This document shows, one piece after another, positions 1,589 to 40,692 of a DNA stretch of 64,000 bases. The translations under genes and the position numbers were made by a program. Each line of letters opens with the position of its first letter. Positions within the stretch are counted from its first letter, which is position 1. This DNA comes from a virus (taxonomy: Duplodnaviria > Heunggongvirae > Uroviricota > Caudoviricetes), in IMG/VR virus record IMGVR_UViG_3300028559_000005; one strand, 5' to 3'. The notes beneath the pieces were generated by a model. That model saw only the letters and a list, made by a program, of their open reading frames with translations. It was not told the DNA's origin and ran no database searches.

Positions 1589-1763
1589 GCTTGTTCCTTT
1601 TGTATTCCTTGGGCGTGTTAGGCGTCGGGTCCGTTGTGTATTTACCACTCAGCATAGAACCGCCTTGTCTTGTTTGTATACCCATTGGTTGAACTAACAC
1701 TGCCATAGAGCCAGTGCTGGAGCTGCCTGCGCTTGCGTCTTCCATTATTTCATGTGCTCTCAT
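1551..1763 (-). CDS. Small hypothetical protein with CTS-like N-terminus
   Basis: Starts MRAHEIME/DASAGSSS. Confidence 0.6.
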   Translation of the reverse strand: MRAHEIMEDASAGSSSTGSMAVLVQPMGIQTRQGGSMLSGKYTTDPTPNTPKEYKRNKHARGQFKNTPGN

Positions 1764-2052
1764 GTTCAATCCTTAACAATGTGTGGTTCACCATGTGTGC
1801 GCCCGGCGGTCCATCTTTGATGCATGTATTGCTCACTTGAATGCGCCCTTGTGCCGGCGGAACCAATTCTCGGCGTAATTCATATTCGCCCGGCGGTGCA
1901 TAAATCTGTATTAGTTCTTCTAGATACTCTTCTCGCCAGACCCATGTACGTTCTGAAAACAATTCTCCGCCTACATATAGTCTATAATTAGGTGACGGTC
2001 CGTCCCAGTCGACTGAAACATCAGCATTGATCAACACAAACTGTGCAGTCAT
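1750..2052 (-). CDS. Hypothetical protein
   Basis: 100-aa ORF in a tightly packed operon. Confidence 0.55.
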   Translation of the reverse strand: MTAQFVLINADVSVDWDGPSPNYRLYVGGELFSERTWVWREEYLEELIQIYAPPGEYELRRELVPPAQGRIQVSNTCIKDGPPGAHMVNHTLLRIEHEST

Positions 2053-2342
2053 GTGTCGGATATGTCAGGAGTAACTGCTCGGTGCAGACGATGTCTTGAT
2101 GCAGAACTTAAAAGATGATCATCGTCAGAGTCTGGTTCATATCCACCATAACGACTCGGGTCGGCACGATGTTTAATTCCAGTTTTGAGTTTTTCTATTT
2201 TGCCCATTTTAACTGGGGTTTTGTCTGGTGGAGAATTTGGACCACGGCGACCACTGTTAGAATTACCAGCTTCCTCAACATTCTTTTCGCCTAGGAATCC
2301 CATACCTTCACGTGGGTGATTAAATAGTTCGTATATCAACAT
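2049..2342 (-). CDS. Hypothetical protein with weak CTS-like start
   Basis: Starts MLIYELF and contains NVEE/A; overlaps neighbours. Confidence 0.55.
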   Translation of the reverse strand: MLIYELFNHPREGMGFLGEKNVEEAGNSNSGRRGPNSPPDKTPVKMGKIEKLKTGIKHRADPSRYGGYEPDSDDDHLLSSASRHRLHRAVTPDISDT

Positions 2343-2344
2343 GA

Positions 2345-2671
2345 TTATTCAGTCCAGGGCAGTGGAAGTATTACCACTGGAGGGATAATCTGCAAGTCAA
2401 TTTGATCTTGTACTTGTAACTCTACAGCGTTTTTATCGACACCATTGGTCCAGATCCAGTCAAGCACTTGTTGTTGTGTTAGATCAACGTAAGGTGTAAA
2501 AGATGCAGAAGCCAACGGAATCTCGCAGGCGGCGAGTGCTGATACCCGGGCGCTGTAGCCGTCTTGTACACCACTGCATGCCCAATAAACTCCAAATACC
2601 ACATCCGGATAACCGTCTGCTTCGGGATAGCATGTCATCTCAGTCACGGTCCAATTGATTGTTGCGGCCAT
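2345..2671 (-). CDS. Small phage protein, possibly virion/tail-associated
   Basis: INWTV...VV..VYW.C...YVDLTQQQVLDWI pattern, which I recall from aquatic phage proteins near tail genes. Confidence 0.45.
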   Translation of the reverse strand: MAATINWTVTEMTCYPEADGYPDVVFGVYWACSGVQDGYSARVSALAACEIPLASASFTPYVDLTQQQVLDWIWTNGVDKNAVELQVQDQIDLQIIPPVVILPLPWTE

Positions 2672-2694
2672 TGTAATTTACTTTCTAAAATCTG

Positions 2695-3339
2695 TTATGC
2701 CATCTGCGTGGAAGGAGACAATGCTGCGGCCAGGGCCATACGTTTTTGTCTATGTGCGCCCGAACTTCGTTCATAGTATTGATCTACAATAGCAGCAGCA
2801 TCTTCTGCTGTTTTTGCACTCTTCAATCTTTGCCCTGCGTTTGCTTCCTTGTTGTTCAATTCGTACTGTACAAACTCTAATTGGTCTTGTAAGCTAGAAT
2901 CTTGTAATGGTTTACGCATTGCATTAGCAAAATCTTGTTGTCGTGATCCGCGCCATTGTGCAATACCATATGCTTTCTCGCCGGGATTCCATGCAGCAGG
3001 ATTGAGATTTTGACCTGATTCTGCTTGTAGGTTGGCCACTAGTCCAGCAGCTTGTTCAGGTGACCATCCTTGTTGCATAAAGTAGTCTAGAGCAATTTTT
3101 GCATTGCCTGCTGTGCCACCACCTGCTCTATTAGATGGTCCAGACATACCAGATCCAGGCAAACGTATTCGAGATCCAGGCTGAATATCATTAGCACTAG
3201 CAAACTGTGGATTTTGCCACATGATGCCATCTACTGTGGTATCGTAGGACTTTGCTATGTTCGGCAAGGAATCTCCAGATCTCACAGTATAGATATTGTT
3301 AGAGCTAGTGGCTTCAGACAAGAAATCAAATAACTTCAT
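2695..3339 (-). CDS. LysM plus phage-tail-lysozyme-type muralytic protein with CTS-like N-terminus
   Basis: LysM (YTVRSGDSLPNIAKSYDTTVDGIMWQNP...IQPGSRIRLP); lysozyme-like AAGLVANLQAES...AYGIAQW...R; starts MKLFDFLSE. Confidence 0.8.
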   Translation of the reverse strand: MKLFDFLSEATSSNNIYTVRSGDSLPNIAKSYDTTVDGIMWQNPQFASANDIQPGSRIRLPGSGMSGPSNRAGGGTAGNAKIALDYFMQQGWSPEQAAGLVANLQAESGQNLNPAAWNPGEKAYGIAQWRGSRQQDFANAMRKPLQDSSLQDQLEFVQYELNNKEANAGQRLKSAKTAEDAAAIVDQYYERSSGAHRQKRMALAAALSPSTQMA

Positions 3340-3340
3340 A

Positions 3341-4303
3341 TTACCCTTTTAACATGGTAGACATGCGACGCATTTGATCCACGCTGTATTCAAAATTTGA
3401 TTGTTTACTAGTGCTTTCTTGAAGTTTTGCCGGTGCTGTGCCGCCTGCTGGTATACCTAATTTTGCTCTACCTTGATCAATTACAGAAGGCTGTGTTGCT
3501 ATTCTTTGACTAACTGACTGATTAGTTGGATTTGCTGGTGCCGCTGGTTTTGTTGGAGTAGCAGCCTGACCCGTCATATTAGCGGGCGGCGCCTTGGCGT
3601 AGCTGCTACGCTCTTGAGCCGAGGCTGGTCCTCTGAGGTTAGCTGCAGGGCCGCCAGGTTTTTGTGCAGACAAAATAGCGCCTGCTGTGGTAGGCCCAAT
3701 AATACCGTCAGCCGTTAAACCGTTAGCTGTTTGAAATTTCTTAATAGCATCAACATTTGGTTTATTATTCGTTAATAGTCCCATTCTAGATGCATACGCA
3801 GCGATTGCAGGGGACATTGATTTATTAGCAGCTGGCTTAGCTGGACTTGCTGCTTGTGTAGGTGCTGCTGGTGTAGATGCGGCAGCATTGACTGCCGCTG
3901 CTTGTCCCATACTCATATCTGTAGCACTTGCAGCAGTATCGGCAGCATTGACTGCCGCTGCTTGTCCCATACTCATATCTGTAGCACTTGCAGCAGTATC
4001 GGCAGCATTGACTGCACCTGCTTGTCCCATACTCATATCTGTAGCACCTGCAACAGCGTCAGCCTTGTCAGCGGCAGCCTGTGCTGCTGCCTCTTCACCG
4101 GGATTACCTACTCCAGTTGCAGAACTTGTTGCTGCTGGTTTACCTTTATTTGGTGCTCGCATGGCAATGTAAGGGTCATTGATGTCGGGTTTGCCGCCAC
4201 CGCGGGTGTACCATGCTTGATCTTCTGGACTCATGGCTGCAAATTTGGCAGCATCGGCACCTTGGTACGGATTTGCTTCTCTTAAAAATTCTATTGATCT
4301 CAT
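3341..4303 (-). CDS. Ala/Pro-rich protein with peptidoglycan-binding domain and CTS-like N-terminus
   Basis: PG_binding_1-like AIKKFQTANGLTADGIIGPTT; starts MRSIEFLRE. Confidence 0.75.
   Translation of the reverse strand: MRSIEFLREANPYQGADAAKFAAMSPEDQAWYTRGGGKPDINDPYIAMRAPNKGKPAATSSATGVGNPGEEAAAQAAADKADAVAGATDMSMGQAGAVNAADTAASATDMSMGQAAAVNAADTAASATDMSMGQAAAVNAAASTPAAPTQAASPAKPAANKSMSPAIAAYASRMGLLTNNKPNVDAIKKFQTANGLTADGIIGPTTAGAILSAQKPGGPAANLRGPASAQERSSYAKAPPANMTGQAATPTKPAAPANPTNQSVSQRIATQPSVIDQGRAKLGIPAGGTAPAKLQESTSKQSNFEYSVDQMRRMSTMLKG
3880..4047. repeat. 60-bp tandem repeat, about 2.8 copies, in frame
   Basis: The unit ggcagcattgactgccgctgcttgtcccatactcatatctgtagcacttgcagcagtatc recurs at 3881, 3941 and 4001. 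It encodes ATDMSMGQAAAVNAADTAAS. Confidence 0.95.
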
Positions 4304-4341
4304 GTGATATTCCTTTATGAATGACCTATGCTTTATTTATT

Positions 4342-4983
4342 CTATTTGCCCTGTGCTGCCAATCTTGCACCATTGTTAAAACTGTTGCTGTGACTGGCAG
4401 CATTTCTGTTGCCACGTGCTTTTGACCATGCATAACCAGCTCTGTGCCCAGAACAATCTTTGGTGCAAGGCGACCCCAAAAATGATAATTCATCCAACTC
4501 TTGTTTTCCAGTGTATCGTTTAATTATGGACATTGATTCCTGATCATTCAACAGAGATGCTAATCCAGGATGTAGTGGGCGTGGCCAGTCGCCAAACTCT
4601 ACCCATTCAGATCCTTGAGTTTCCCAATTTAACATTGGTTTAAATTCGTGAGCTACTATGGCTAAAAAATTGTAGTATCTAAATCCCGACGGATGCCTGA
4701 ACACATACAACGGGATCAGTTTAAGTGGGCCGTTATACCCTGCTTCTTCTTTGACTTCTCGTTTGACAGCATGTGCTGGATTTTCACCAGCGTCGATTGC
4801 ACCGCCCCATGTTCCCCAGGTGTTAGGTTGCTCCACTTGTGATGATCTATGAGCTATACAAATCCGATTGGTATCGGCTGCCAGGAACAAACAACCAGCA
4901 GCTTGCTTGCCCCAGAATCCTGTTTTCTCCAAAGCATCACGATGTTCTTTATCTGACTCAGTCACAAATTCGGTTGCTCTCAT
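4342..4983 (-). CDS. NUDIX hydrolase with CTS-like N-terminus and a C-terminal Cys-containing module
   Basis: Nudix box GGAIDAGENPAHAVKREVKEEAG; starts MRATEFVTE; module after ELDE/L reads GSPCTKDCSGHRAGY. Confidence 0.85.
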   Translation of the reverse strand: MRATEFVTESDKEHRDALEKTGFWGKQAAGCLFLAADTNRICIAHRSSQVEQPNTWGTWGGAIDAGENPAHAVKREVKEEAGYNGPLKLIPLYVFRHPSGFRYYNFLAIVAHEFKPMLNWETQGSEWVEFGDWPRPLHPGLASLLNDQESMSIIKRYTGKQELDELSFLGSPCTKDCSGHRAGYAWSKARGNRNAASHSNSFNNGARLAAQGK

Positions 4984-5459
4984 TTGGCATCTCCAAAGAT
5001 TGGTCCACCGACATACTGACCATTCTGACTTAACACACCATTGCGTAGATTGTTGATAATGTTATCAGTGATGTTTCTGCGACGGAAATGCGGCAAAAAA
5101 ATATGTGTTTCTACAGGACGATCGCCCTGCTCTGCTTGGATAGCATACATCCTGTGACGCCCGTCATGATCACGCACCTTGGCTTCTAAATTGAAATCAT
5201 CGTTCTCCCAAGCTTCAGGAACTGCTATGGTTAAAAACGGTGCTCCAAACCCTTTATCATTGATCTGTCGGCGTAGATATTGTATAGTTTCTTTTTCGTC
5301 AGGAGAGTTAACATCCAAGGGCAAGCTGAGTTTGAGGAATGTGCTGGGTCGCATGACTGTGCGTAGACCAAAGTAATCTACATCAGCATTGTGCGGAACA
5401 GCACCGAGACCTTGCCGATTGTCTATCTTTAGTTCCGTTATGAATTCCTTTGATCTCAT
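4980..5459 (-). CDS. ParB/Srx-like domain protein with CTS-like N-terminus
   Basis: DHDGRHR resembles the ParB/Srx DGxHR motif; starts MRSKEFITE. Confidence 0.5.
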   Translation of the reverse strand: MRSKEFITELKIDNRQGLGAVPHNADVDYFGLRTVMRPSTFLKLSLPLDVNSPDEKETIQYLRRQINDKGFGAPFLTIAVPEAWENDDFNLEAKVRDHDGRHRMYAIQAEQGDRPVETHIFLPHFRRRNITDNIINNLRNGVLSQNGQYVGGPIFGDAK

Positions 5460-5659
5460 GTGTCTATCCTGTGTACATTGGTCACTATGCTGTCTTTGCC
5501 GTATTGAGCTTGCAGTAATAATCGAGCCATGGCAGGTGACTTGGCAAATATAGCCACATCTATACTGGTAGTATACGAAGGATTTTTGACCCGCACAGAC
5601 GCACTATACACATGAAATCCCGGAAGCAAGTCTTCACAGAGAAATTCTGTTGCTCTCAT
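5456..5659 (-). CDS. Small hypothetical protein with CTS-like N-terminus
   Basis: Start moved to MRATEFLCE at 5659 (TGATG overlap with the upstream stop). Confidence 0.65.
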   Translation of the reverse strand: MRATEFLCEDLLPGFHVYSASVRVKNPSYTTSIDVAIFAKSPAMARLLLQAQYGKDSIVTNVHRIDT

Positions 5660-7368
5660 CAGCAGTTCCACTTTCTCAACGCTAATGCTTTGCGTGTGGG
5701 TTTGCCATTGGGTTTTTTCATTGGCCCTTTGACTCCGCCCATCCTGGCACAGAATGATTTACGACGCTTGGCTGCTTTTGATCCTGGCTTGAGTTTGCTG
5801 GGCTTGGTAGTAACTGCCATTTGTAATTTTGAGCCTGGATTCTCTCTACGATAGCTAGCAACACCTTTGGCATTGAGACCGCCCTTTTTGCTCTTACCTG
5901 CGCTTCTACGCCAAGCTGCTGTTTCAAGAATGATTTCTTCATCGGTGAAGAAGTTGAATATGTCTTCAGTAAGACCACGATCAGCCATGGCCTGTTCAAA
6001 GTCATCAAATATTGCATGGGCTTGTTCTAGGCTGTATACGCTTTCTGTTACACCTTCCTCTACACCCGACTGCATCTGTTGTTTGACTGCACGAGCAACA
6101 TCTCCCGCCAATGCGCCAGGGTCATTATCGCCACCGTAGTTGAGCACACTCATGATTGCATTGTGAATCACACGGTCATCTGCACGACGAGCCATATTGG
6201 GATACATGCGCTCAAACTCAGCATACACTTGATCAGCTAGGTCATCGTATTCACCGTTGAAGCCTTCATCCAGGCCATCTGCTTGTACAGCCCCTTCGCC
6301 GTCGGCATCAAAAGCTACCATTTCTACTTTGGGCCACATACGTGCAGGCACATACAGAATACCCGAAGTTTCGTCATGATCGATCTGGTCGCCAAAGCGA
6401 GCCATTACTGCATTATATGCCCGTTCACTGTTAACGCTAAAACCCACAGTGTCCGTATCGTCAATACCGCTGTATCCGCCTTCCGCCACACCTTGCTTCT
6501 TGAGAATATCCAGTGCGTGTTTTTCCATCTGTTTTTTGGTAATAGGTTTACCGGGTGCTTCCTTACCTTTGAAATAATCAGAACCTTTTTTATCTCTTGA
6601 ACCATAGGTGCTGTGACTTACTTTGCCATCACGACCGGGTTGTGGTGCTGATTTGTCCATTTCATTCAAGCCTTCCGCCACACCTTGCTCACTTGCTTTG
6701 GCTTTGGCTTCGGCCCTGGTACGACTGTATCCCCGTGCTGTTGCTTCTCGTTCTTGGTTAGGATATATAGATATTGCAAACATTTTTCCATCTTTAACAA
6801 AGTACCAATCTGTTGGATCTAGATCGTGTCTTTCGTCATCACCGCGATTGAACGCTCCCCTTACTCCGCGGAAAGGCCTGCCTCTGCCTTCCGCCACACT
6901 TTCTTTTTTGGCAGTCTTTGCAGCATCTTTCCAGGCCTGTGCTGTGGGGGCCTTGGGGCTGTCGGCATCTCTACTGGTACCGGCCTTCTTGCGCTTGTTT
7001 ACATTGTAGTATAACCCTTTGTTCTCCTCTGAGATACTTTCGTTAGGCACACAGTTTCTTACCTGCTTGCCAGTCACAGCTGACTTTTTTGTGCCTTCTG
7101 CATGTTTTCCTGGCCAGCACTTGGTGTAACCATTGCTATCTTTCTGACCCTTTTTGATCTCCATGATATTGCCGTGTGTTTTGCACATACCACAGTCTTC
7201 ACACACCATTTCCATCACAACACTTTCGTTGTGTTTCTTCTTGCCAGCACAATGAGCACGTTGCGAAAAGCCTTTTGGATGAGAGCAATTGATACTGCTT
7301 TTGTATTTTTGACTCCAGCCTTCATCTAATTTTTTGATTTTTCCAGTTATAAATTCATTTGATTTCAT
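5659..7368 (-). CDS. 569-aa modular protein of short basic and acidic domains separated by xxE linkers
   Basis: Starts MKSNEFIT. Modules include WSQKYKSSINCSHPKGFSQRAHCAG, KCWPG, GLYYNVNKRKKAG and AWRRSAGKSKKGGLNAKG...SFCARM...ALRKWNC. Repeated QGVAEG/VEEG linkers. Confidence 0.7.
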   Translation of the reverse strand: MKSNEFITGKIKKLDEGWSQKYKSSINCSHPKGFSQRAHCAGKKKHNESVVMEMVCEDCGMCKTHGNIMEIKKGQKDSNGYTKCWPGKHAEGTKKSAVTGKQVRNCVPNESISEENKGLYYNVNKRKKAGTSRDADSPKAPTAQAWKDAAKTAKKESVAEGRGRPFRGVRGAFNRGDDERHDLDPTDWYFVKDGKMFAISIYPNQEREATARGYSRTRAEAKAKASEQGVAEGLNEMDKSAPQPGRDGKVSHSTYGSRDKKGSDYFKGKEAPGKPITKKQMEKHALDILKKQGVAEGGYSGIDDTDTVGFSVNSERAYNAVMARFGDQIDHDETSGILYVPARMWPKVEMVAFDADGEGAVQADGLDEGFNGEYDDLADQVYAEFERMYPNMARRADDRVIHNAIMSVLNYGGDNDPGALAGDVARAVKQQMQSGVEEGVTESVYSLEQAHAIFDDFEQAMADRGLTEDIFNFFTDEEIILETAAWRRSAGKSKKGGLNAKGVASYRRENPGSKLQMAVTTKPSKLKPGSKAAKRRKSFCARMGGVKGPMKKPNGKPTRKALALRKWNC

Positions 7369-7392
7369 TTAGTTCACCTTTTTCTAACAGTT

Positions 7393-8478
7393 TCATTTGT
7401 TTTTTGCTCTTCCAGCTTTCATATTGGCCAACCAGTGTGCCATGCGTTGTTTTTCACCAGAACTGTTCTTGGCAGTTTTTCTCAAACTACTTACACTGGC
7501 TTTGGTATTTACTCCCACACGTTTGGCCAGACCCTTGCGTCCAGGATTACGGCCGTCAGCAAAGTTTTCGTCAACCGAAGACTCATTGGATGTTGCAACA
7601 GGTTGTTTGGCCTTGTAGATATCTTCCCATTTGTCTGAAATAGCATTCTTTAATTCCAGCGTGGATTTAAAATTATTGTCTTGCATATACTTAATTATCC
7701 ACACAGCACTAGCACGGTCTCCTGAATCAGGCTTGCGAGCATTGCTTAGATCCACGCTGAGATTTTGATCTTCTGATGGATTACCATAGTACCGCATGGT
7801 CTTTAACGCACGTTTTGCTCTATCACTTAGATGTGCTTCGTCGCTCTTGGTAATTAACTCAATCCAGGGCTTTACAAAGTCTGTGGGCTTGCGGGACGAT
7901 CCAGCTGGTGTTGGTCCACGTAATACATCACGGGATTGGCCTGGTATCTGTGCTCGACGTTTGTTCAGCAATCGCCATGCTGCTTCGTCTGTGTAGAAAA
8001 ACACAGGTAAGCCTTGTTGCTTGGCTGTGATCAGGATCTGTCGTGTTTCTGGACTGCGATATTCATCTTGTTCTTTGAGCAACACATGAACTTCAGTCAC
8101 AGGAGTGATTGGAATAGTGGGCTCTTTGCTAAACACACGGTCTTCTGCTTCTCTGGTTCTTGTACCATTGCTGTGTAACCATGCACGGTCCCAGTAGTCA
8201 ATGGGTTTCACAATGTATCGAGAGTTAAACCAGTCACCATTGAGTTTGAACATCACAGCGCCTGATCCCACCCAGCGATGATAATCGCCAGTTATTGTTC
8301 GTGTCAAACTAAGAAAGTATGGATATCCAGCAGGAGCATACTGTTCTTCGCTGCGATTGCCGGTCACGCTGGCCAATTCAAAGTTGCCGGATTGCAGTAT
8401 TCTTAACCCAGCTCTGATACTGGTGTAATGAAACAATACATCAGTTGCTCGTTCAATTAAAAATTCCGTTGCTCTCAT
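7393..8478 (-). CDS. Putative ADP-ribosyltransferase-fold protein with CTS-like N-terminus and a basic C-terminal module
   Basis: VLFHYTS...YFLSLTR...REAEDR gives an H / S-x-T / E-x-E arrangement like ART folds; starts MRATEFLIE. Confidence 0.5.
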   Translation of the reverse strand: MRATEFLIERATDVLFHYTSIRAGLRILQSGNFELASVTGNRSEEQYAPAGYPYFLSLTRTITGDYHRWVGSGAVMFKLNGDWFNSRYIVKPIDYWDRAWLHSNGTRTREAEDRVFSKEPTIPITPVTEVHVLLKEQDEYRSPETRQILITAKQQGLPVFFYTDEAAWRLLNKRRAQIPGQSRDVLRGPTPAGSSRKPTDFVKPWIELITKSDEAHLSDRAKRALKTMRYYGNPSEDQNLSVDLSNARKPDSGDRASAVWIIKYMQDNNFKSTLELKNAISDKWEDIYKAKQPVATSNESSVDENFADGRNPGRKGLAKRVGVNTKASVSSLRKTAKNSSGEKQRMAHWLANMKAGRAKNK

Positions 8479-8843
8479 TATACATACCTTGCTAGTTCAT
8501 CTTCACCTAAATCTTGTATGCGATTGGGCGGGATTTTAGTTGTGGAGAAGTACCATCCGTGGTCATATGTCAATGGAATACCCGTCACATCAATTTGCAA
8601 CAATGTCAATGGATCATCGCTACCCTCTGACTTGGCGTACATCCATCCACCGACCATACTTAGTTCTCTTTGTAACTTGACCTTATCACCTTCGTCTACA
8701 ACCATAAATGCTTTGCCATCATACGGATCTAGCCCAGCATATAGAATTTCTTCTGCGTTTTCAGTACTGGTAATATGGTACGCAGTTTTAAACTCATGGT
8801 CATGATGTGTCCTTGATTCAGTGACAAATTCAGTTGCTCTCAT
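8478..8843 (-). CDS. Small putative ART-fold protein with CTS-like N-terminus
   Basis: AYHIT...EEILYAGL...LLQIDV...IPPNRI pattern of small H-x-T ART/Tpt1-like domains. Start moved to MRATEFVTE at 8843. Confidence 0.45.
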   Translation of the reverse strand: MRATEFVTESRTHHDHEFKTAYHITSTENAEEILYAGLDPYDGKAFMVVDEGDKVKLQRELSMVGGWMYAKSEGSDDPLTLLQIDVTGIPLTYDHGWYFSTTKIPPNRIQDLGEDELARYV

Positions 8844-11800
8844 TTGGGTTCCCATTGCATACTTTTACTACCTTTAACAGTAGGAGTAAACCCTTGACCT
8901 CTGTAGAACTTGGTTAATTTACTTTGACTCACTTGTCCTTTGTCCCAAGGAAACAGTGTCAAGCTGATGCCATCTTCTCTTGCCATGGCTTGTAGTTCTT
9001 GCATGGCACGTGACCCAACACCTTGACGTAGCGGATATGCTTGAATCCATTTGACTTCAACTGCGCCGCGCTTGCTAAAGCTAGGAACAAGTTCAAACAT
9101 AGCAAACTGTTGGTCATCGCCTTTGCCCCAGACCATAACGTGATTGTTCTGCATGGTGTATGGATACTTTGCGTAGACTCGTTCAATCCATGCCTGTGCA
9201 GCATCATTGTTGCCTAGTTTGATTCTTATTGGCTCTTCTTCTTCGGCTACATCTTTCATTAGATGTTTAGCATCGCCGGACTTCTTCCAAGCATCCCACA
9301 TGGCCTTGCCAGGCGGCAATTGATTTCTACTTGGTACAATAGTGTTACCCAACATTCTCACATACGCATAGATGTTACGTGCTATACCGCGGCCTTGATA
9401 TTCAAGTTTCAAGCTGGTAACTGCTGACACTAGACCATTTTTGCTGGGTCTAAATTTTGCAAGACCTATCTGTTGATAATTGTCGTCTAGCACTTTGACT
9501 TGAAAATATTCTTTACCATTTATTTCAATCCCAGTGGCACGATATGTCAGCCCATCAAAAATTTGGGTGTCGTTGAACGCTGGATTGAAAACATCTGGAT
9601 TGATAGTTTCATTTAAGTTGTTGGCCATTACTTGTGGTAAGAAACTGGCGGCAATGTGTTGGCAAGTGTTAAAAATGTCAGCATTATCAGTGACCTGCAG
9701 ATTGAATGGATAGTCTGTGGTAGGATGCTGTGTGGGGTCTTGCCACCCAGCATAACATTTTTCAATACCAAAGTCAGCTAACAAATCAGTGCAACTCTCT
9801 CCATACCTCTCATCCATGTCATGCACACAAGGACTCAATGTAGTGACCATGATGGCATTGGGACCAATACGACCGTGACGTTTGAGATGCTGGTCTATGG
9901 CCACTCGTTCAGCATGGCGTCGTGTTCCGTTGAGCCCAGGCAAGTTGATAGCATAAGTGTGATTGTTTTTGTTATCAATCAAACAAGCAGCCACACGTCC
10001 ATACTTTTCTGGATCAGTCTCATGACCACGATGTATCATGTTGATGCACTTTTTCAGCACATTATCTAGTTTACCAAGTTTTGTGATCTCTTGGCTTTCA
10101 TCCATATCTTCTTCACCAGGCTCGTCTAGGTCGTGTATGGGCAAGCCAAGGCGTTTGAGCTTGTGACTGTACATGTTTTCTAGCTCTTCGCTGCCAAACG
10201 CCAACACAGTATGCGGCGGGCCTTGATTGTAATGAGACTTGTCGGCTTGATCAAGATCGCTAATGTCTTGTCCCAACTGATACCAATCTTGGGTGTCGCT
10301 CACATCCACTTTGATTGTGCCAGCGGGCATTTTGGGAGGTGTTTCAGGACCAGTTGGTTTTTGATTGCCTAGAGCATCCAGGTCACGACGTAATCGTTGT
10401 TCTAACACTGTGATGTTTTCTGACACTGATTGAGAACGTAGTCTCACTGAGAAGTTACTGGCATCCACTTCTGGATTTGCCTGCATTGCAGTAGCCACCC
10501 ATTCTTGACCTCGACGCCAGGCTTCTGTTTGATTTGCTGCCTGTATTACAAATACTGGTTGATTGGAAGATCTATTGTATACTTCCCACTGTGTTTGTGC
10601 CATTGGGATATCTAATTCAACGTCTTCTACTCCTGGAATTGGGGTGGATGTGTATTGGTATTGTTGTTGGCTTGCTGCAACACCCATCTCTGGTACTACT
10701 GTAACTCCAGCCTGCATACGCCCAGGATTACTACGCATCCAGTTTATGGCCACACGGTTGGCATCACTCTGTACATTGCCTACTCCCGAGAAGCGATGTA
10801 TTTCTTGACCGTCCGGATTCAAGATCAACCAGTTGCCAGTGAATGTTTGCTGACCTTGACCCGGACGAGTTAAAGTTTGCGGTATGCCAACGTCAACAAT
10901 GCCACCTTGTGCTGCATCTGAATTATTGCCCTGGCGGGTACGAACACCGTACAATTCAGGAGCTTCGCCACGCATGCCTAACGCCAAACGTGCTTCTTGT
11001 TCAGCTTCGGGTCTACTGGTATTGCTCAACTCTCTCACAGTAGAGTTGTCGCTGATTCTATAGATTTCCCATGGACCTGGGCCAGTGGGCACCAAGTTGC
11101 GTGGCTGTCCTTCGCGTGGTACATTTTGTGTGCTAACGAATGCATTTGATGATCGCGCTGGCACTGTCGACGCCCGGAACAGGTGAGAACGGCCAGCGGT
11201 GTTGCCAAATATATCTGGTCTTGCTTCTCCAGCAGCTCTTATAGCGTTTAGCTCAGATGACGCACGAATTTGTATTTCTTGCCCAGGATTACCTTGTGGG
11301 CTTACATACCAGATTGGTTGTTCAGTCTGTTGTGGTTCAATTTCACGCACTTCAATGTCAGTTATCATACGAGAATTTTGTTCACGACCTTGAGTTATGA
11401 ACTGTTCAGCAGCCTCACGACTTGGGAATCTACGCAACACATTGTTGTCAGACTGGCCAGGAGCTCTAGCAAAGCGGTTCATGTCATTCATCCAAATGCC
11501 CCAGTTGCCTGTACTTGGTTGTGCGGCAGATTGTGGGCCAGGTTGTTGCTGATCACCACCACGGGCAACCACAGTGCCAGCACGATCAACTAAACTAAAG
11601 TCATGTGGATTATTTTCCCCTGAAACAAACTGTCTAAACTTTTGTACAGCGTCTTCTTGACTTGATGCTGTGATCGATGATCTATTGTAACCGGCTCGAG
11701 CATCATAAACGCTATAGGACAATGATGGCTTCGGATCCTGATATGGTCGTAGCGGTTTTGCCTGTAGAGTGTTCCGTGCGCTGGCCCAGTCTGGGTAGTT

Positions 11801-14800
11801 GCCTGGTTCTATAGCCTTGGCGATGGCTTCTTCCTTGCTAGAAGCAACAATTTCAATGCTGGCAAAATATCCAGGACGACTCACATCCCACCAATATTTT
11901 TGTCCCTTTGGTGTCTTGCCTTTGGCAAGATTACGGGCGAGATTCTGTTGCTCTAGTTCTTGAAAAGTTGCTTTTCTAAAGTCTTTGATGGCCTGTTGCG
12001 TTTCTTTGCTTAGTTTGTCGCCGACTTCTTTGCTATTGCCCTGCAACGATACCATGTACTTGGCAAACTCTTGAATCATATCACCATATTCGTCCTTGGT
12101 ACCGTTAGGATTCAACAGTTTGTACAGCTTCTTGAGATATTCTTGGCGATACTTTTCAGGATCCATCGCAGCGTCCAGGGCCACAGTAAATCGTAATAGG
12201 GTATCTTCAATCTTGCTGAAGTTTGAATCCAACCAGTCGCCACCCGGACTCCGGAATTCAATGTATCCTGTCTTGGTATTGATACTGGTATATTTTTCTG
12301 TAGTGCCTGTGTGAATGGCCTTGGTGGCAATGTCTTCCATGTGCTCACGCATCTTGTCCATGACCTGCGGAGCAATATCAGGATTGCGTTTCAGCATGGT
12401 TTTAATTTTGCCAATTGCTGACTTGGCATAGTTATTGCCTGAACGTCCAAACAGTTCTAGCACATATTCATCGCCCATGAGCAGGGCCAGTTTGACATAG
12501 TCCAGTTTGTCAAGACTGTAGTTGGGTACTGAAATGTTGATATGCAAGCCAGTGCTGTCATTGGTATAGCAACCAGACTTGTCTGCCCAAGCCTTGACCT
12601 TGTTTAGATCTGAAATCATTTCATCTATGGGCATAGGCGGACTAACAAATTCTAAACCTTCGTCGCCAGGGTTGTCGCCTTCTAAACTGCCGTCAGGTTC
12701 CACAACATAGGTACCTGCTTCACGACGGCCGCCATGGTAATTTCTACTGGCGTTCACAGGTTTACCCATGTAACTGGAGAATTCATCAGCCACTTGATCT
12801 ATATCCATGTCACCGTCGTTGCCCTCATTAGCGTCAGTGTAATAGGGCCATTCAATATCAAAGTTGCTTTCGATGTCACTCATGGTTTGATATTTGTCAT
12901 CCAAGAAACTGCCTTCATCGTACTCGTCTCGTTGTTCTTCTGCAAACGCTTCAAATGCATCATTGAAGACACGGCCTTGATCTTCAAAAGCTTCCAGCAC
13001 AAACTGTTCTTGTAATTCATCAAGTCTGGCACTCAGCAGTTGAGAGAAGTCTTCGCTCTCTTGTGGCAAGTCAGGATTGGCATCCATGATTTCGTCACGA
13101 GCTTGTAGCATGGCTTCATCACGATCAAACAAGTCATTAACGTTGACAAAGTCACGCATGTAATCTACTCCATCGCGTGTCCAAGCTTCAGCAGTTTGTT
13201 CCTGCTGCCATTCCTCGTACTCGTTTTGTATTTCTTCCATTAGGTCATCTACTGCACGGCGTCCATTGTGGTCACCGTCATGGAAAAAGTCTCGAATGTC
13301 ACTGAAGCTTCTGGTACGTTGATCCTGATCGTAGTCTGGTTCCCAGTCAGGTTCTTGTTCATCGACCCCAACATCGGGCACAATCATTTCAAATTCCATG
13401 CCTGCCTGTGCGCCTGTTTGTGCTGCTAACTGACGCAGATTGGTGCTGGTCATCTTGATTTCAAACAGATCTTTCTCTTTGAACTCTCGCAACATCTTGT
13501 TTAAACCGGCTGTGAGTAATGCAGGATGACCTTGTGAATCTGTTTGTAATCCAAGTTTGTTGGCTTCCTTGCCCACAGCACCTGGACGCACATCTCGGGT
13601 CAAGGCCATGACAAATCTTGGATCGCGTGCCTGTGCCTTTGTGGGTATGTATCCTGACGCTTCTTCCAGTGTGACCCCATCAAACATTTCAGGCTGTTCT
13701 TCAGCCCACTGTCGCATGATACGGCCAGCCATGGCGTTGGCTTGGTCTTCCCAAGGGCTACCAGTTTCACCAGCATCTATAGGCAGGGGATTTCTTTCAT
13801 CCTGCTGACGATGTGTCATCTCATGGGCCATGGTGCGAAGTATATCCAACACATGGCGTCCCGCGGTGGCCAAGATCAGTGTGTTGCTTTCTGGTTCGTA
13901 TTGACCAAAGCTACCGTTCTCTTGACTCCATTCTGGTGTTGTTTCCAAACGCAATCTAGGTGGATTCTCTAATTTAAGTTTATCTACACAACTGGCATAG
14001 AAACGATGTAGGATCTTTTTCAAATGGTCAAGTTCTACACTTTCATCCACTTGTTCTGATTCAGTACCAGCAGGGTGATCTTGGCCAGCATACGCAGTAC
14101 CTGGATACCAGTAATCACGCATGCCGTAATTGACTTTCTTTCTGGCAGCAGGCTTACGATTTAAACTCAACTCACGATCTTGTATTGCTGTCTTGGCATC
14201 TTTTAATTTGCCAATGCAACCCATATTTCTCAACAATTTAAATGCAATGTTCTCGCAGCCAAACTCACCATTCTTTTCCAGGCCAGTTTGGCGCATTGTT
14301 TTGATCTTGTCCCACAGCTGATTCACAGCATCTGCATTGCCGGACTTGATAGCTGAATGTATTCTGGCATCAAGATCAGCTGTTTTGTGTTGTACACAAG
14401 AGTCATCTATGCTAGCACGACGGCGCTGTGGAACTTGTACCCAGTCACCATTCTTTACGCTGTAAATGCCTTGACTCACATGCTTTTGATCACTGGGCTG
14501 CACATACAGTTCCACTGGAACGCCAGCAATCTTTATGTCATGCTCGGCATTATACTGATATTTTTTTGCATTGAACAGTTCTTGATACACAGGATCGTCA
14601 GGCATGTCCACCACAAGGTGTAGATCAATGTCTGAATGGCGAGTATAAGAATAGGCAGCATTGCTACCTGATATGGTAATGTCCTGAATGTTGAGATCAT
14701 CAACACCCAGGAATTCTTGAAAATTTGACGCAATTGCCAGCAACTTGTCACGCACATCAGGTAACAAGTGCTCGTCTGACCCCCACAAACGGGGGTTCAA

Positions 14801-14860
14801 ACGTTGATGGAATTTTACAGCATCGGCGAGATTAAAGTTGTCAAGATCATGGAAATTCAT
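8840..14860 (-). CDS. 2006-aa polyvalent protein: Pol-beta-type nucleotidyltransferase, HExxH metallopeptidase, amidoligase (COOH-NH2 ligase), repeat region, Zn deaminase, two GNATs
   Basis: GSNAAY..SDIDLH (about aa 65); AHEMTH (aa 346); GMEFEM (aa 487)...EPDGSL...GLEFVSPP...STGLHINIS...IEFRSPGG; RHAE (aa 1649)...LSPC...C; EYQGRGIA; LRQGVGS. Confidence 0.8.
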   Translation of the reverse strand: MNFHDLDNFNLADAVKFHQRLNPRLWGSDEHLLPDVRDKLLAIASNFQEFLGVDDLNIQDITISGSNAAYSYTRHSDIDLHLVVDMPDDPVYQELFNAKKYQYNAEHDIKIAGVPVELYVQPSDQKHVSQGIYSVKNGDWVQVPQRRRASIDDSCVQHKTADLDARIHSAIKSGNADAVNQLWDKIKTMRQTGLEKNGEFGCENIAFKLLRNMGCIGKLKDAKTAIQDRELSLNRKPAARKKVNYGMRDYWYPGTAYAGQDHPAGTESEQVDESVELDHLKKILHRFYASCVDKLKLENPPRLRLETTPEWSQENGSFGQYEPESNTLILATAGRHVLDILRTMAHEMTHRQQDERNPLPIDAGETGSPWEDQANAMAGRIMRQWAEEQPEMFDGVTLEEASGYIPTKAQARDPRFVMALTRDVRPGAVGKEANKLGLQTDSQGHPALLTAGLNKMLREFKEKDLFEIKMTSTNLRQLAAQTGAQAGMEFEMIVPDVGVDEQEPDWEPDYDQDQRTRSFSDIRDFFHDGDHNGRRAVDDLMEEIQNEYEEWQQEQTAEAWTRDGVDYMRDFVNVNDLFDRDEAMLQARDEIMDANPDLPQESEDFSQLLSARLDELQEQFVLEAFEDQGRVFNDAFEAFAEEQRDEYDEGSFLDDKYQTMSDIESNFDIEWPYYTDANEGNDGDMDIDQVADEFSSYMGKPVNASRNYHGGRREAGTYVVEPDGSLEGDNPGDEGLEFVSPPMPIDEMISDLNKVKAWADKSGCYTNDSTGLHINISVPNYSLDKLDYVKLALLMGDEYVLELFGRSGNNYAKSAIGKIKTMLKRNPDIAPQVMDKMREHMEDIATKAIHTGTTEKYTSINTKTGYIEFRSPGGDWLDSNFSKIEDTLLRFTVALDAAMDPEKYRQEYLKKLYKLLNPNGTKDEYGDMIQEFAKYMVSLQGNSKEVGDKLSKETQQAIKDFRKATFQELEQQNLARNLAKGKTPKGQKYWWDVSRPGYFASIEIVASSKEEAIAKAIEPGNYPDWASARNTLQAKPLRPYQDPKPSLSYSVYDARAGYNRSSITASSQEDAVQKFRQFVSGENNPHDFSLVDRAGTVVARGGDQQQPGPQSAAQPSTGNWGIWMNDMNRFARAPGQSDNNVLRRFPSREAAEQFITQGREQNSRMITDIEVREIEPQQTEQPIWYVSPQGNPGQEIQIRASSELNAIRAAGEARPDIFGNTAGRSHLFRASTVPARSSNAFVSTQNVPREGQPRNLVPTGPGPWEIYRISDNSTVRELSNTSRPEAEQEARLALGMRGEAPELYGVRTRQGNNSDAAQGGIVDVGIPQTLTRPGQGQQTFTGNWLILNPDGQEIHRFSGVGNVQSDANRVAINWMRSNPGRMQAGVTVVPEMGVAASQQQYQYTSTPIPGVEDVELDIPMAQTQWEVYNRSSNQPVFVIQAANQTEAWRRGQEWVATAMQANPEVDASNFSVRLRSQSVSENITVLEQRLRRDLDALGNQKPTGPETPPKMPAGTIKVDVSDTQDWYQLGQDISDLDQADKSHYNQGPPHTVLAFGSEELENMYSHKLKRLGLPIHDLDEPGEEDMDESQEITKLGKLDNVLKKCINMIHRGHETDPEKYGRVAACLIDNKNNHTYAINLPGLNGTRRHAERVAIDQHLKRHGRIGPNAIMVTTLSPCVHDMDERYGESCTDLLADFGIEKCYAGWQDPTQHPTTDYPFNLQVTDNADIFNTCQHIAASFLPQVMANNLNETINPDVFNPAFNDTQIFDGLTYRATGIEINGKEYFQVKVLDDNYQQIGLAKFRPSKNGLVSAVTSLKLEYQGRGIARNIYAYVRMLGNTIVPSRNQLPPGKAMWDAWKKSGDAKHLMKDVAEEEEPIRIKLGNNDAAQAWIERVYAKYPYTMQNNHVMVWGKGDDQQFAMFELVPSFSKRGAVEVKWIQAYPLRQGVGSRAMQELQAMAREDGISLTLFPWDKGQVSQSKLTKFYRGQGFTPTVKGSKSMQWEPK

Positions 14861-15856: not shown

Positions 15857-16549
15857 CTACGACCTAGCTTCGTCCAAATAATCTTCAACCATGGGCTGAT
15901 TGTACTTGCTTTGATAGCTGGCCCGCATGCCGCCTTGGCTCATTTGACGTGTGACTTGTTCTGCAACTTCAGTGCCCATAACAGTATCCAACATCCGGAC
16001 CACTGTGTTGGCCAGCTGGGGATTGCCTTGTGTTGTGGGATAAAGGCTCATGACCAATGCAGTTCGTTGGCGTTGATTTAAATCAGGCCATGCTGTGCGT
16101 ATTTGTGTGGCCGATGTCATACCTGGACCAAACTCCACAACGGGCAAGTAGGTCATGTATGCGTGTTGAGTCATGGGCGCCATGTTGTCACTGATGGGTT
16201 GCAGATATGCCGGTGTACCGTCACGTTTCACACCACCCGGCTGCGGAGGCTTGTTGGCGTCTTTTTCACTGCGCACAAAGATCAACTGTGTGTCTGCAGG
16301 GTTATAGTTTTTTGTTATTTCTTCTGCACGAAATGGACTCTTCACTTGATAGAAATCACCTGGAGAAACTCCAGCCAATTGTGCTAGTTTTTCTTTTAAT
16401 TTAAAAGGAAACGGGCGTGTTGAAGTGTCGTTGGTTGCAGCCACTTTGACATCAGCATTGGGAAATGCTCGTTGAGCAGATTTGTACAGTTCTAAATGGC
16501 CGGGGTGAAAAGGGTGTGCGCCCATTGGTAATACTACTAAAGTTTTCAT
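15857..16549 (-). CDS. HxGH-superfamily (cytidylyltransferase-like) nucleotidyltransferase
   Basis: N-terminal VLPMGAHPFHPGH; later SATQIR. Confidence 0.7.
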   Translation of the reverse strand: MKTLVVLPMGAHPFHPGHLELYKSAQRAFPNADVKVAATNDTSTRPFPFKLKEKLAQLAGVSPGDFYQVKSPFRAEEITKNYNPADTQLIFVRSEKDANKPPQPGGVKRDGTPAYLQPISDNMAPMTQHAYMTYLPVVEFGPGMTSATQIRTAWPDLNQRQRTALVMSLYPTTQGNPQLANTVVRMLDTVMGTEVAEQVTRQMSQGGMRASYQSKYNQPMVEDYLDEARS

Positions 16550-16628: not shown

Positions 16629-17318
16629 ATGTATTTACAAAACAAATATACCCGTTGTTATTATAATATTATTCAACGAGCCAACATCAGAATTCTTAAA
16701 CCCCCATACGAACATCATCATATAATTCCCCGGAGCCTAGGCGGAAATAATTTTAAAAAAAACATAGTCAAATTAACAGCACATGAACATTTTGTGTGCC
16801 ACCTTTTGTTAACAAAAATGGTCGAAGGTAAGAATAGAGAAAAGATGGTTTATGCAGCCTGGGCAATGGCAAATCAAGAAAATCAAAATCAACAACGACA
16901 CAAGGTTACTGGAAAAATTTATTCTATTCTAAAACAAGAATATTGTAAGGTTAAATCATTGCATACTAAACTTAACAATCCCATGCATGACCCTGAAATT
17001 CGATTACGGCATCAAGAAGCAATTACTAAACGAGGGAAAACTTTAGGGAACACTGGACATAAACGTGGTGCAATGTCAGAAGAATTAAAAGCAATTCTTC
17101 GTCAAAAAACAATAGACTCAATGACCAGCGAAAGACGAGAACAGATTAAACAACAACAGTTAAACAGGACACCGGAACAGAAAGAAAAATATGCATTTGC
17201 TCATTCTAAAAGAATATCATGCATATATTGTCGTTGTGTATGTGCTCCTGGAAACTTTGCCCGTTATCACGGTAATAACTGTAAATTAAATAATCTACAA
17301 GTGGCGGGCATTCAATAG
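16629..17318 (+). CDS. HNH homing endonuclease with C-terminal DNA-binding repeats
   Basis: YEHHHIIPRSLGG...NIVKLTAHEHFVCH; SD GAAGGAG; opposite orientation to its neighbours. Confidence 0.85.
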   Translation: MYLQNKYTRCYYNIIQRANIRILKPPYEHHHIIPRSLGGNNFKKNIVKLTAHEHFVCHLLLTKMVEGKNREKMVYAAWAMANQENQNQQRHKVTGKIYSILKQEYCKVKSLHTKLNNPMHDPEIRLRHQEAITKRGKTLGNTGHKRGAMSEELKAILRQKTIDSMTSERREQIKQQQLNRTPEQKEKYAFAHSKRISCIYCRCVCAPGNFARYHGNNCKLNNLQVAGIQ

Positions 17319-36116: not shown

Positions 36117-39100
36117 TTATAATCTTCCTACTACAATTTCTATCATACCTTCAAGGCCTGTGAAATCTTCCAATGACTTACCAATGATAGATCCTGACAA
36201 TGGATTTTCTTCTGCACGAGCTCGGCCATTGCCAGCAGATACCATCATGTCTCCTTTGGATACATTTCCAACTACCAGAGTTAGCACACGACCAGTTAAT
36301 GCTACTATGGCTCTGTGGTCAGCAGTGAGTCCGTTATTCATCAAATAACTGGGATTTTCAGATATCACCCCAGCCACACGACGACTTGAATCAACGGTGC
36401 TTATTGTAACTTCTTTGTTGCCGCCAAATACCATCACAGTACCTGGTGAATAATCTGCATCAGCTTCGTATACCTCAGCCAAGTCAGCATACAATGCGGT
36501 GGCTGCTTGTGCAAATACTCGATTGAAATATCCAGTTGCGGAGCCAATATTTCCTACAAGATTTCCAGCAGCATTTACAATTCCAATTGCACCACCACTA
36601 GAATTTACACTCAATGCTCCTGTAAGACTAAAGTTACCGCCGTTATCAAGAATAGCTTTTGCATTTGCAGTAGTTGCACGGCTAGCAGTTCCTAAGTATA
36701 GTATATTTGTGTTGCCAAGTAGCCATGGGCCACTAGACTGAAATCTCACCTCGTTGTTGGCAGCAGACAAAATCATAGGACCATCAACTGACAGTTTAAA
36801 TCCTGCTGTTGCTGATCCAACTATTATATTACCACTGCCAGTGATGTTACCTGTTGATGATATACCGCCACCAGTTATAGTACCTGTGCCTGAAATTGCA
36901 CCGCCGGCACCAGTTGTAACAATACCAGCGGATGTAAGATTTCCAGTTACAGATACTGCACTACCCAGTAGACTTGTTCCAGTAACATTACTAGCTGCTG
37001 ATATAAGTCCACTAGATATTAAATTACCACCTGTAATATTACCCGTAGCTGATATAGTAGTAGCAGCTGACACAGCCCCAGTTGCACTAATAAATCCTCC
37101 GAGTACCAATCCTCCAGTGCTGAACACAGCAATATTACCAACACCACCAATTGTGATATTTGCATTGCCGCCCGGCGTACCAATATTGACCTCGGATGTA
37201 CCATTGACAATTTTGACACTAACACCTTGTGTACCTTGAGCACCAATCACACCCTGCGTACCTTGAGCACCAGTTGTGCCCTGTGCTCCTATACCGGCAA
37301 AAGACCCTGATATGCCTTGTACGCCTTGTACACCTTGCCCAGCAAATTGACCATCACGACCTTGTACACCTTGTACACCTTGCCCGGCAAACAAACCAGA
37401 TGTACCTTGAGCACCAGTTACGCCTTGTACACCTTGACCGGCAAATTGACCATCAAGACCTTGTACGCCTTGTACACCTTGCCCAGCAAACAAACCAGAT
37501 GTACCTTGCACACCTTGCACACCTTGACCGGCAAATTGACCATCACGACCTTGTACACCTTGTACACCTTGCCCAGCAAACAAACCAGATGTACCTTGAG
37601 CGCCAGTTACACCTTGAACACCTTGACCGGCAAATTGACCATCAAGACCTTGTACGCCTTGTACACCTTGCCCAGCAAACAAACCAGATGTACCTTGAAC
37701 GCCTTGTACGCCTTGAACACCTTGCCCAGCAAATTGACCATCACGACCTTGCACACCTTGTACGCCTTGTACGCCTTGTACACCTTGACCGGCAAATTGA
37801 CCATCACGACCTTGTACGCCTTGTACACCTTGTCCGGCAAACAAACCATCTGTACCTTGCACACCTTGCACACCCTGAGCACCAGTTGTACCTTGAGCAC
37901 CAATTAAACCTTGTGAACCTTGAACACCTTGTACGCCTTGTACACCTTGACCGGCAAATTGACCATCAAGACCTTGTACGCCTTGAACACCTTGTCCGGC
38001 AAACAAACCAGATAAACCTTGTGTGCCTTGTGCAGCTTGTACGCCTTGTACGCCTTGTGTACCCTGAGCACCAATTAAACCTTGTGAACCTTGAACACCT
38101 TGTACGCCTTGTACACCTTGACCGGCAAATTGACCATCAAGACCTTGTACGCCTTGAACACCTTGTCCGGCGAACAAACCAGATATACCTTGCACACCTT
38201 GCACACCTTGCACACCTTGCACGCCTTGTGTACCTTGAGCACCAATTAAGCCTTGCACACCTTGTGTACCTTGCGCAGCTTGTACACCCTGTACACCCTG
38301 TACACCTTGAACACCCTGAACGCCTTGGCTGCCTTGTACGCCTTGAACACCTTGACCGGCAAATTGACCATCAAGACCTTGTACGCCTTGTACACCTTGA
38401 CCAGCAAACAAACCAGATATACCTTGCACACCCTGTACGCCTTGCACACCCTGGAGACCCTGTACGCCTTGTGTACCCTGAACGCCTTGTACACCTTGTG
38501 TGCCTTGCGCAGCTTGTACGCCTTGCACACCCTGTACGCCTTGGAGACCTTCAACACCTTGTACACCTTGCACCCCTTGTGTACCTTGCGCAGCTTGCAC
38601 ACCTTGTACACCTTGAACACCCTGAACGCCTTGGCTGCCTTGTACGCCTTGTACACCTTGACCGGCAAATTGACCATCAAGACCTTGTACGCCTTGTACA
38701 CCTTGCCCAGCGAACAAACCATCAAGACCTTGCACACCTTGCACACCTTGCACACCTTGTATGCCTTGTACGCCCTGAACGCCTTGTACACCTTGTGTGC
38801 CTTGCGCAGCTTGTACACCTTGTACTCCTTGTACTCCCTGTACGCCTTGTACGCCTTGTGTGCCTTGTACACCCTGTACACCTTGTGCTCCAGATCCTGC
38901 TACTGCTGCACCATTGGCATAGGTAAATCCAGCTGCTTGCACATTTCCCACAGCAGTTATTACTCCACCAGTAGTGATATTGCCAGTAGCAGTTATTTGT
39001 GCAGCACTTTGGATGTTACCCACGGCTGTAACTAATCCGTTAGTTCGTAAGTTATCACCTTGAATATTACCTGTAGCTGAGATATTACCAGCCAAGATAT

Positions 39101-40685: not shown

Positions 40686-40692
40686 TCTGGCT

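Follow-up and report, generated by a model that had tools for sequence, protein, structure and literature searches.

The closest described counterparts of the protein treated here come from phage T4, whose internal proteins (IPI, IPII, IPIII and Alt), which are ejected with the DNA, are cut once, beside the capsid-targeting sequence MKTYQEFIAE (PMC8442874), and whose protease gp21 cuts after L/I-x-E (PMC9026906), as an earlier note on this DNA had stated. A second group is that of the polyvalent proteins, for which Iyer, Burroughs, Anand, de Souza and Aravind (2017) predicted that they are delivered with the DNA and that proteolysis sets their domains free (PMC5512222). We analyzed a 2006-residue protein encoded in a window of 64,000 nucleotides, which is part of the 153,873-bp IMG/VR virus record IMGVR_UViG_3300028559_000005, judged to be 44% complete and derived from an uncultured freshwater T4-like giant phage. 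The open reading frame (ORF) occupies window positions 8840..14860 on the minus strand; it starts with ATG, runs uninterrupted for 2006 codons and ends with a stop codon at 8840-8842, and the predicted full-length product has 226 kDa and a pI of 5.0. Because exactly the same protein is present on 11 public contigs, the longest of 255,929 bp, the ORF is not an assembly artifact, and its earlier reading as one real gene stands. The joints between its modules end in Glu and match the site of a T4-type head protease; therefore, the probable fate of this polyprotein is loading into the capsid, cleavage into separate enzymes, and delivery together with the DNA.

Several features bring the locus close to the T4 internal proteins. 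The head module of a related phage is of the T4 type and includes an S77 protease; neighboring and stand-alone genes start with a tag, MRAxEF[ILV]xE, that resembles MKTYQEFIAE; the cut sites proposed here are of the hydrophobic-x-Glu type, as for gp21; and the cargo would consist of enzymes, as is the case for Alt. In contrast to the single cut of the T4 proteins, up to nine modules are contained here in a 226-kDa precursor with internal sites, and this precursor lacks a canonical N-terminal tag. The gp21 sites have L/I three residues before the cut, counting the Glu (position P3, the Glu being P1), whereas the joints of the polyprotein also accept Val and Met.

As judged from its sequence and structural models, the protein fits the definition of the polyvalent proteins, namely 2-15 unrelated domains in a polypeptide of a phage or conjugative element, with a zincin as the hub. 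It shares with them the presence of unrelated catalytic domains in one phage polypeptide and the recurring zincin, GNAT and Pol-beta nucleotidyltransferase (NTase) domains (PMC5512222). Iyer et al. (2017) never mention an amidoligase, do not include a deaminase among the component domains, and report Pol-beta NTases in conjugative elements only (PMC5512222). They also attribute release to embedded peptidases (PMC5512222), whereas the joints of the present protein bear the motif of a trans-acting head-maturation protease; a further difference is that the modules here alternate with tagged stand-alone genes. The combination of enzymes had been called unusual, which holds in the sense that amidoligase and deaminase are missing from the published catalogue (PMC5512222), but the architecture itself is very common in metagenomes, with 2096 clusters at 50% identity and E ≤ 1e-30.

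The giant phages phiKZ, 201phi2-1 and SPN3US pack many proteins into the head, and their head and ejection proteins are cut after Glu by gp175/gp245, at a three-residue motif and often at several sites per protein (PMC9026906). Their protease is related to gp21, but the motif is S/A-x-E, and the lineage and the head module are different. To our knowledge, a multi-enzyme polyprotein with permutable modules has not been described in these phages. Polyproteins from RNA viruses of eukaryotes provide an analogy only, one product being split into its functional units at the short conserved motifs that separate them; there is no homology, and their protease is located within the polyprotein and acts in the cytoplasm.

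Glu-ended joints in the polyprotein and its relatives

Profile searches, AlphaFold2 models and Foldseek revealed nine modules, six of them enzymatic. The order claimed in the earlier note (NTase, HExxH peptidase, amidoligase, short repeats, zinc deaminase and two GNAT domains) was confirmed by profiles, Foldseek matches and invariant motifs; two small modules absent from its list, 'ASGYIPT' (residues 401-459) and 'GPETPP' (1503-1578), complete the architecture. The seven joints that it named, at E273, E400, E467, E1481, E1588, E1751 and E1873, are all present, and in the AlphaFold2 models all seven lie between folded domains, in segments with a predicted local distance difference test score (pLDDT) below 50. 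The claim that domain boundaries coincide with [VLM]xE motifs agrees with these models, in which the predicted boundaries match the xxE sites rather than miss them. Two further conserved sites, E1173 and E1391, precede the next low-confidence segment by 3-4 residues. The peptides at the joints differ (QVDE, TLEE, DLFE, EVRE, SVSE, DMDE, NLNE and DVAE), and the residue after the predicted cut is variable (S/A/G/E/I/T/N), the conserved elements being the hydrophobic P3 and the Glu at P1. At the sequence level, the coincidence of joints and boundaries gains significance solely through comparison with relatives.

The comparative set included about 390 relatives, together with a 90%-identity collection of 1119 proteins of similar length and the 50%-identity library, which holds the 2096 cluster representatives mentioned above. 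Residues 1 to ~930 are common to all 119 top matches, and the C-terminal part is variable. An alignment of 120 proteins showed that insertions of at least 30 residues in this core occur after residue 275 (44), 399 (34) and 456 (52), with two others at 917. Each inserted module starts directly after hydrophobic-x-Glu and ends with another such motif (DITE/S, GIME/S, NMSE/A, DIAE/A, IVKE/A, DLVE/S or DIDE/S). The inserted types include GDSL-like, ParB-like, deaminase and GPETPP modules. The last of these, located at 1503-1578 in the present protein, is found at the 456-459 joint in many relatives, and in others a deaminase occupies that joint. Relatives with a permuted order, such as deaminase, zincin, GNAT2 and NTase, have the motif at every joint.

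A census of the mapped module joints detected the motif at 557 of 643 (87%), as compared with 44% of random windows of equal size. The motif was found in 100% of the joints of the ten commonest pairs of enzyme modules (NT-MP, MP-AS, AS-AM, AS-GP, GP-AM, GP-DA, R7-DA, G1-G2, DA-G1 and R7-GP), and nearly all permuted pairs also reached 100%, with DA-MP (2/3) as the exception. Inside the repeat array, the corresponding values were 2% for R5-R6, 0% for R12-R3 and 38% for R6-R7, with 97% for R3-R5, the joint of E1173. Because most of its internal joints are without the motif, the array serves as an internal negative control, and its sequence indicates that it is probably left uncut between most repeats. 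With regard to single positions, E467 is invariant and E400 is conserved in at least 90% of 69 sequences of 60-76% identity, while other linker residues vary. The sequence [LIV]xE/[IVL]xM precedes the amidoligase in all of the retrieved modules (196/196), and the joint upstream of the deaminase is [LIVM]xE in 85% of 97 homologs or, when counted by distinct context, in 42 of 52.

The exchange of modules between phages falls exactly at the joints, as would be expected if these were conserved mainly as DNA breakpoints of module exchange and the protein motif were a by-product. We consider this explanation highly unlikely, since the joints encode different peptides, and the conservation concerns a protein-level pattern. 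Furthermore, no DNA block of at least 14 nucleotides is shared by several joints, and a single two-copy match of 18 nucleotides was detected (joints 273 and 1588). A DNA linker common to the joints was sought and rejected; the search yielded chance two-copy matches only.

Tagged stand-alone genes and fusion at the joints

The genes located downstream of the polyprotein begin with MRATEFVTE, MRATEFLIE, MRSKEFITE and similar sequences. All eight matches (8/8) of the pattern M[RK]xx[ED][FIL]xx[ED] in the complete 153,873-bp record fall in this tagged-gene array, a block of ~7 kb at 1763..8843 on the minus strand, and the gene order around the polyprotein is repeated in 7 related loci. Among short relatives with complete N-termini, corresponding to GNAT modules, the strict tag was present at the start of 62 of 97.

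Tagged genes and modules of the polyprotein are exchanged for one another. The stand-alone GNAT2 (~142 residues) reads MRATEFITE/EHEPTRIKLGNN, and the polyprotein at the same place reads MKDVAE/EEEPIRIKLGNN, with E1873 invariant (alignment A3). Likewise, the stand-alone GNAT1 reads MRATEFVTE/EINPDV and the polyprotein NNLNE/TINPDV, with E1751 invariant (alignment A4). In both alignments, the final Glu of the tag coincides with the Glu of the joint. A leader was also observed in proteins with an N-terminal amidoligase; 31 of 33 start with M[RK], with INM/IKM immediately after the LxE that closes the leader. Two of these proteins come from the cultured jumbo phages Atu_ph07 and RsoM2USA, where the stand-alone amidoligases are annotated as 'hypothetical protein'. 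The one from Atu_ph07 (AUZ94978.1, L014:5620-7122) has the leader MRWQDISSKKLTE/LKM and is located one gene from the portal gene, and the one from RsoM2USA (ORF26, L016:4365-5936) has the leader MKLIQKLSE/LKM. The virion proteomics of RsoM2USA covered just the ten most intense gel bands, and the absence of ORF26 from this set is uninformative either way (PMC8504454).

In an ATGA sequence at 8840..8843 (minus strand), the stop codon of the polyprotein, TGA, shares bases with the ATG that opens the first tagged gene (MRATEFVTES...), suggesting translational coupling. In the relative P0200, the same boundary appears as an in-frame fusion in which the whole tag is kept internally (...MQWEPQ-MRAIEFEAIE...). 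In another locus (L012:10001-14778), the gene is split at the residue-467 joint into ORFs of 791 and 780 residues, the second of which starts at the Met of 'IKM'; this may be a real split or a sequencing error. A Met is present within 12 residues upstream of the Glu, at distances of 2-11, at seven of ten joints (residues 392, 456, 1165, 1382, 1586, 1745 and 1868), as compared with ~3 expected, and these residues may be relics of the start codons of once separate tagged genes. A Shine-Dalgarno-like sequence was found upstream of M1586 and at none of the other six, including M1745 and M1868. Because six of the seven lack this sequence, separate internal initiation is unlikely, and translation starts at the joints were discarded as a candidate. 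Taken as sequence evidence, the polyprotein most likely arose by the in-frame fusion of neighboring tagged cargo genes.

Such an origin leaves room for a multi-enzyme chain that stays uncut, either in the virion or in the cytoplasm, with the xxE joints as non-functional scars of the fused genes. The fusion visible in P0200 and in the ATGA overlap, the Met residues at 7/10 joints, the loss of the Glu in some fusions (e.g., GIAK/DD in P0212 and P0213), and a motif count that over the whole ORF equals chance would all be in agreement with it. We nevertheless judge it unlikely: scars in disordered linkers should decay, yet the Glu is invariant or nearly so at 35-76% identity while the neighboring linker residues vary, and nearly all of the newly created joints between enzyme modules retain the motif.

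Head protease and proposed processing of the polyprotein

A T4-type head module is present in a related record (G003; 70% core identity and the same gene order), which encodes a portal protein, a Peptidase_S77/phrog_207 protease (87 bits) and a major head protein. Between the genes of the protease and the major head protein, a 365-residue protein in the scaffold position (L015:3909-5006) contains 26 [LIVM]xE motifs, one every 8-20 residues, as compared with 12.7 expected, and the capsid protein has four of these motifs in its first 42 residues. In both proteins, as in the joints of the polyprotein, the residues found at P3 of the motif include Val and Met. The 365-residue protein, of unknown function according to PHROGs (phrog_10922), looks like a T4 gp22-like scaffold that is chopped into peptides.

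These observations favor, without making it certain, the idea that the polyprotein is a capsid cargo cut by the prohead protease. It would be made together with the downstream tagged-gene array and then taken into the prohead, where a T4 gp21-type serine protease would cut after Glu at exposed [L/I/V/M]-x-E joints. The proposed sites are 273, 400, 459 and/or 467, 1173, 1481, 1588, 1751 and 1873. Approximately nine products would be generated, namely the NTase (31 kDa), the zincin (15 kDa), a basic peptide (7 kDa), the amidoligase with repeats 1-3 (80 kDa), repeats 4-7 (34 kDa), a 12-kDa module, the deaminase (18 kDa) and the two GNATs (14 and 15 kDa). Kept in the head, they would pass into the host together with the DNA and act early there as modifying enzymes. 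Whereas the earlier note expected 6-8 separate injected enzymes, processing would likely give about nine products, with six predicted enzymes among them.

The joints could also be cut by the embedded HExxH peptidase, before packaging or after injection, with the prohead protease uninvolved. The zincin module is present, its residues H346, E347, H350 and E371 are invariant, and Iyer et al. (2017) proposed this role for embedded peptidases, citing the processing of P1 DdrB (PMC5512222). However, the tagged stand-alone genes, which contain no peptidase, bear the same motif, which is also dense in the protein at the scaffold position of the related phage. Recognition by zincins usually depends on the residue that follows the cut, which also argues against self-processing. 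The joints show the opposite pattern, since a conserved hydrophobic P3 and P1 Glu with a variable residue after the cut is the signature of T4 gp21 (PMC9026906). Considering both sides, self-processing seems decidedly unlikely. Neither this explanation, nor the uncut chain, nor the recombination breakpoints cover at once the Glu-specific three-residue pattern, its retention at new joints, and the fact that the tag ends in the same pattern.

The processing of a polyprotein in the prohead, as put forward in the earlier note, came through each computational check that could have contradicted it; it agrees with the matching boundaries, with sites that are conserved and kept at permuted and inserted joints, with the gp21-type protease in the lineage, and with the tagged stand-alone modules, but other results weigh against it. 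The N-terminus (MNFHDLDNFNLAD) lacks the canonical tag of ~10 residues ending in L/I-x-E; only its first six residues are tag-like (M-x-hydrophobic-x-E/D-L), and L11 and D13 are invariant with no Glu after them. With the canonical tag missing, the reading gives no account of how the polyprotein would enter the prohead. Most repeats of the array are probably not separated by cutting. The S77 protease was not found in the 44%-complete record of the polyprotein, where PF03420 gave no match, or in four of five related fragments. Within the whole ORF, [LIVM]xE occurs 27 times, as compared with 28.9 expected from the composition; because of this, the sequence alone gives no signal, and a motif near any boundary is expected by chance. 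The motif is found 13 times in low-confidence segments (7.0 expected) and 14 times in the folded parts (21.9 expected), which suggests an enrichment in linkers that is mild and not decisive. In addition, the LxE/IxM sequence that precedes the amidoligase could partly reflect the structure of this domain, and the apparently intact metallopeptidase of the protein itself could be the processing enzyme instead. Finally, cutting, capsid location and ejection are inferred for this family from sequence, as are the protease responsible and the substrate of every enzyme. Regarding the N-terminus, an [LIVM]xE at residues 3-5 was considered as a mini-propeptide and dropped, given that it occurs in only 39% of the N-termini of the family.

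A more tentative proposal, which we regard as possible rather than likely, is that these phages follow a general plug-in rule for capsid cargo. Any protein could be added either as a gene with the MRAxEF[ILV]xE tag or as an in-frame fusion behind a hydrophobic-x-Glu joint, and genes would switch freely between the two forms. If this were true, the 2006-residue protein would represent a set of cargo genes joined by fusion, giving about nine products at fixed 1:1 amounts, a new form of the targeting peptide that stays uncleaved (MNxxEL...LxD) would bring it into the head, and its invariant NTase-zincin-amidoligase core would perform an undescribed modification of the host or of nucleic acids.

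Cleavage by a head-maturation protease would offer a concrete alternative to the published self-cleavage proposal for how the widespread polyvalent proteins are resolved into working units. The family would also tie the T4 capsid-targeting system to the very large group of uncultured giant phages represented by the 2096 clusters. It provides a catalogue of likely injected enzymes, comprising NTase, amidoligase, deaminase and GNATs and, in relatives, ParB-like, SET, NUDIX, M23, lysozyme-like and U49 peptidase modules, whose targets may include host defense systems. Natural multi-cargo precursors could additionally guide T4-based protein delivery.

Modules of the polyprotein and genomic context

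The Foldseek searches against the PDB were run with two models of ~1000 residues; because each query held several domains, the E-values were weak (0.004-0.1), and the fold readings rest on the match probability and on the agreement with Pfam and PHROGs, not on E-values. Residue conservation refers to 69 homologs, and all module coordinates are on the minus strand. Module 1 (residues 1-273; 14042..14860) comprises a flexible peptide (1-16), the NTase (17-231) and a disordered linker ending in QVDE273/S. The pLDDT is 76-90 across most of 21-230 (one block at 63) and below 50 in the linker (232-275). The NTase matched phrog_36119 (E = 3.6e-44), which is a stand-alone gene in T4-like cyanophages and in Maribacter and Lak phages; the match to Pfam NTP_transf_2 was under the cut-off (E = 0.012). 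Residues G65, S66, D77, D79 (DxD) and E117 are invariant, and Foldseek detected the adenylyltransferases AadA, ANT(9) and ANT(4'). The GS and DxD motifs, the third carboxylate and the fold matches place module 1, by sequence and model, in the Pol-beta superfamily of nucleotidyltransferases.

Module 2 (residues 274-400, fold 277-394; 13661..14041) is a minimal zincin metallopeptidase with HEMTH at 346-350 and E371, which ends in TLEE400/A. Its four catalytic residues (H346, E347, H350 and E371) are all invariant, and Foldseek matched it to abylysin 4jiu (probability 1.00, TMt 0.58); the matches to Pfam were all below the cut-offs, including that to DUF6782 (E = 8.5e-4). Module 3, 'ASGYIPT' (residues 401-467, the module itself 401-459; 13460..13660), is small, basic and conserved, with candidate cut sites at LRE459/F and LFE467/I, and the stretch 395-467 has low pLDDT.

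Module 4 (residues 468-984, domain 468-915; 11909..13459) includes an acidic helical insert (519-666) and a helical tail. It scored 26.6 bits with PF12224 (cut-off 22) and showed a glutamine-synthetase-like fold, with Foldseek matches to glutamine synthetases (probability 0.9-0.97); the core residues, including E489 and E491, are invariant. The profile score above the cut-off and the modeled fold assign it to Amidoligase_2. Module 5, the repeat array (residues 985-1481; 10418..11908), contains the internal conserved site VRE1173/I and ends in SVSE1481/N. It consists of seven degenerate repeats of ~55 residues each (985-1476, window 10433-11908) with a beta-beta-alpha-beta pattern, which weakly resemble DUF2188 (E = 0.055) and Phage_ORF5, all in a range of E = 0.01-0.06 that is below the cut-offs. 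The fourth repeat (1180-1236) has no confident fold, and a search of the ESM Atlas with the repeats gave no usable match.

Module 6 (residues 1482-1588; 10097..10417) is formed by a helix and GPETPP (1503-1578) and ends in DMDE1588/S. Module 7 (residues 1589-1751; 9608..10096), which ends in NLNE1751/T, scored 39.4 bits with PF00383 (cut-off 25) and contains HAE at 1649, PC at 1677-1678 and C1690. The sequence assigns it to the zinc deaminases of the CDA superfamily, save for the spacing of the second Cys, which is 11 residues after PC and not 2 as in P-C-x-x-C; this region of the AlphaFold2 model is of moderate confidence only. The top PDB sequence matches of the deaminase, to designed PPR repeat proteins, were rejected as spurious, each matched stretch being insignificant; the best real match is the RibD deaminase (E = 8e-4). 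Module 8 (residues 1752-1873, fold 1755-1868; 9242..9607) has a pLDDT of 72-92 and ends in DVAE1873/E, and module 9 (residues 1874-2006, fold 1885-2006 by Foldseek; 8843..9241) completes the protein. In the models, both adopt the GNAT fold, with Foldseek matches to single and tandem GNATs (probability 0.95-1.0). Their Pfam matches were under the cut-offs, and relatives have precomputed PF13508 and PF00583 annotations. An NCBIfam search with the single modules gave nothing above the cut-offs.

Relatives carry additional modules at the same joints (P0004, P0010, P0030, P0043, P0053, P0128, P0153, P0186 and others). These comprise ParB-like, SET, NUDIX, PF10463 Peptidase_U49, GDSL-like hydrolase and PG_binding_1 modules, as well as the cell-wall hydrolases M23 peptidase and PF00182 (class-I chitinase/lysozyme-like). 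Together with the adjacent tagged-gene array, these hydrolases are the context that favors transfer of the polyprotein into the host along with the DNA.

Around the polyprotein, the phage genes include tail fibers (36117-43388), a T4-type clamp loader, a ClpB-like ATPase, a NUDIX hydrolase and a homing endonuclease. A nucleotide search against cultured phages gave no match, and a protein search against them gave stand-alone NTase and amidoligase genes only. Comparison of the portal protein places the T4-related jumbo phages Sinorhizobium phage Phosso, Atu_ph07, PA5oct and XaC1 nearest among cultured phages, with 48-52% identity. The T4 late promoter TATAAATA was also searched for and set aside as uninformative, with 3 matches in the window and 2.0 expected. 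The upstream gene (15857-16549, minus strand) encodes the HxGH motif of cytidylyltransferase/NMNAT-like enzymes (MKTLVVLPMGAHPFHPGH); in the relative P0213, a homolog of this gene is fused to GNAT2 through a joint that is missing the Glu (GIAK/DD). The homing-endonuclease gene (16629-17318; phrog_655, E = 1.8e-35) is the sole plus-strand gene of the stretch.

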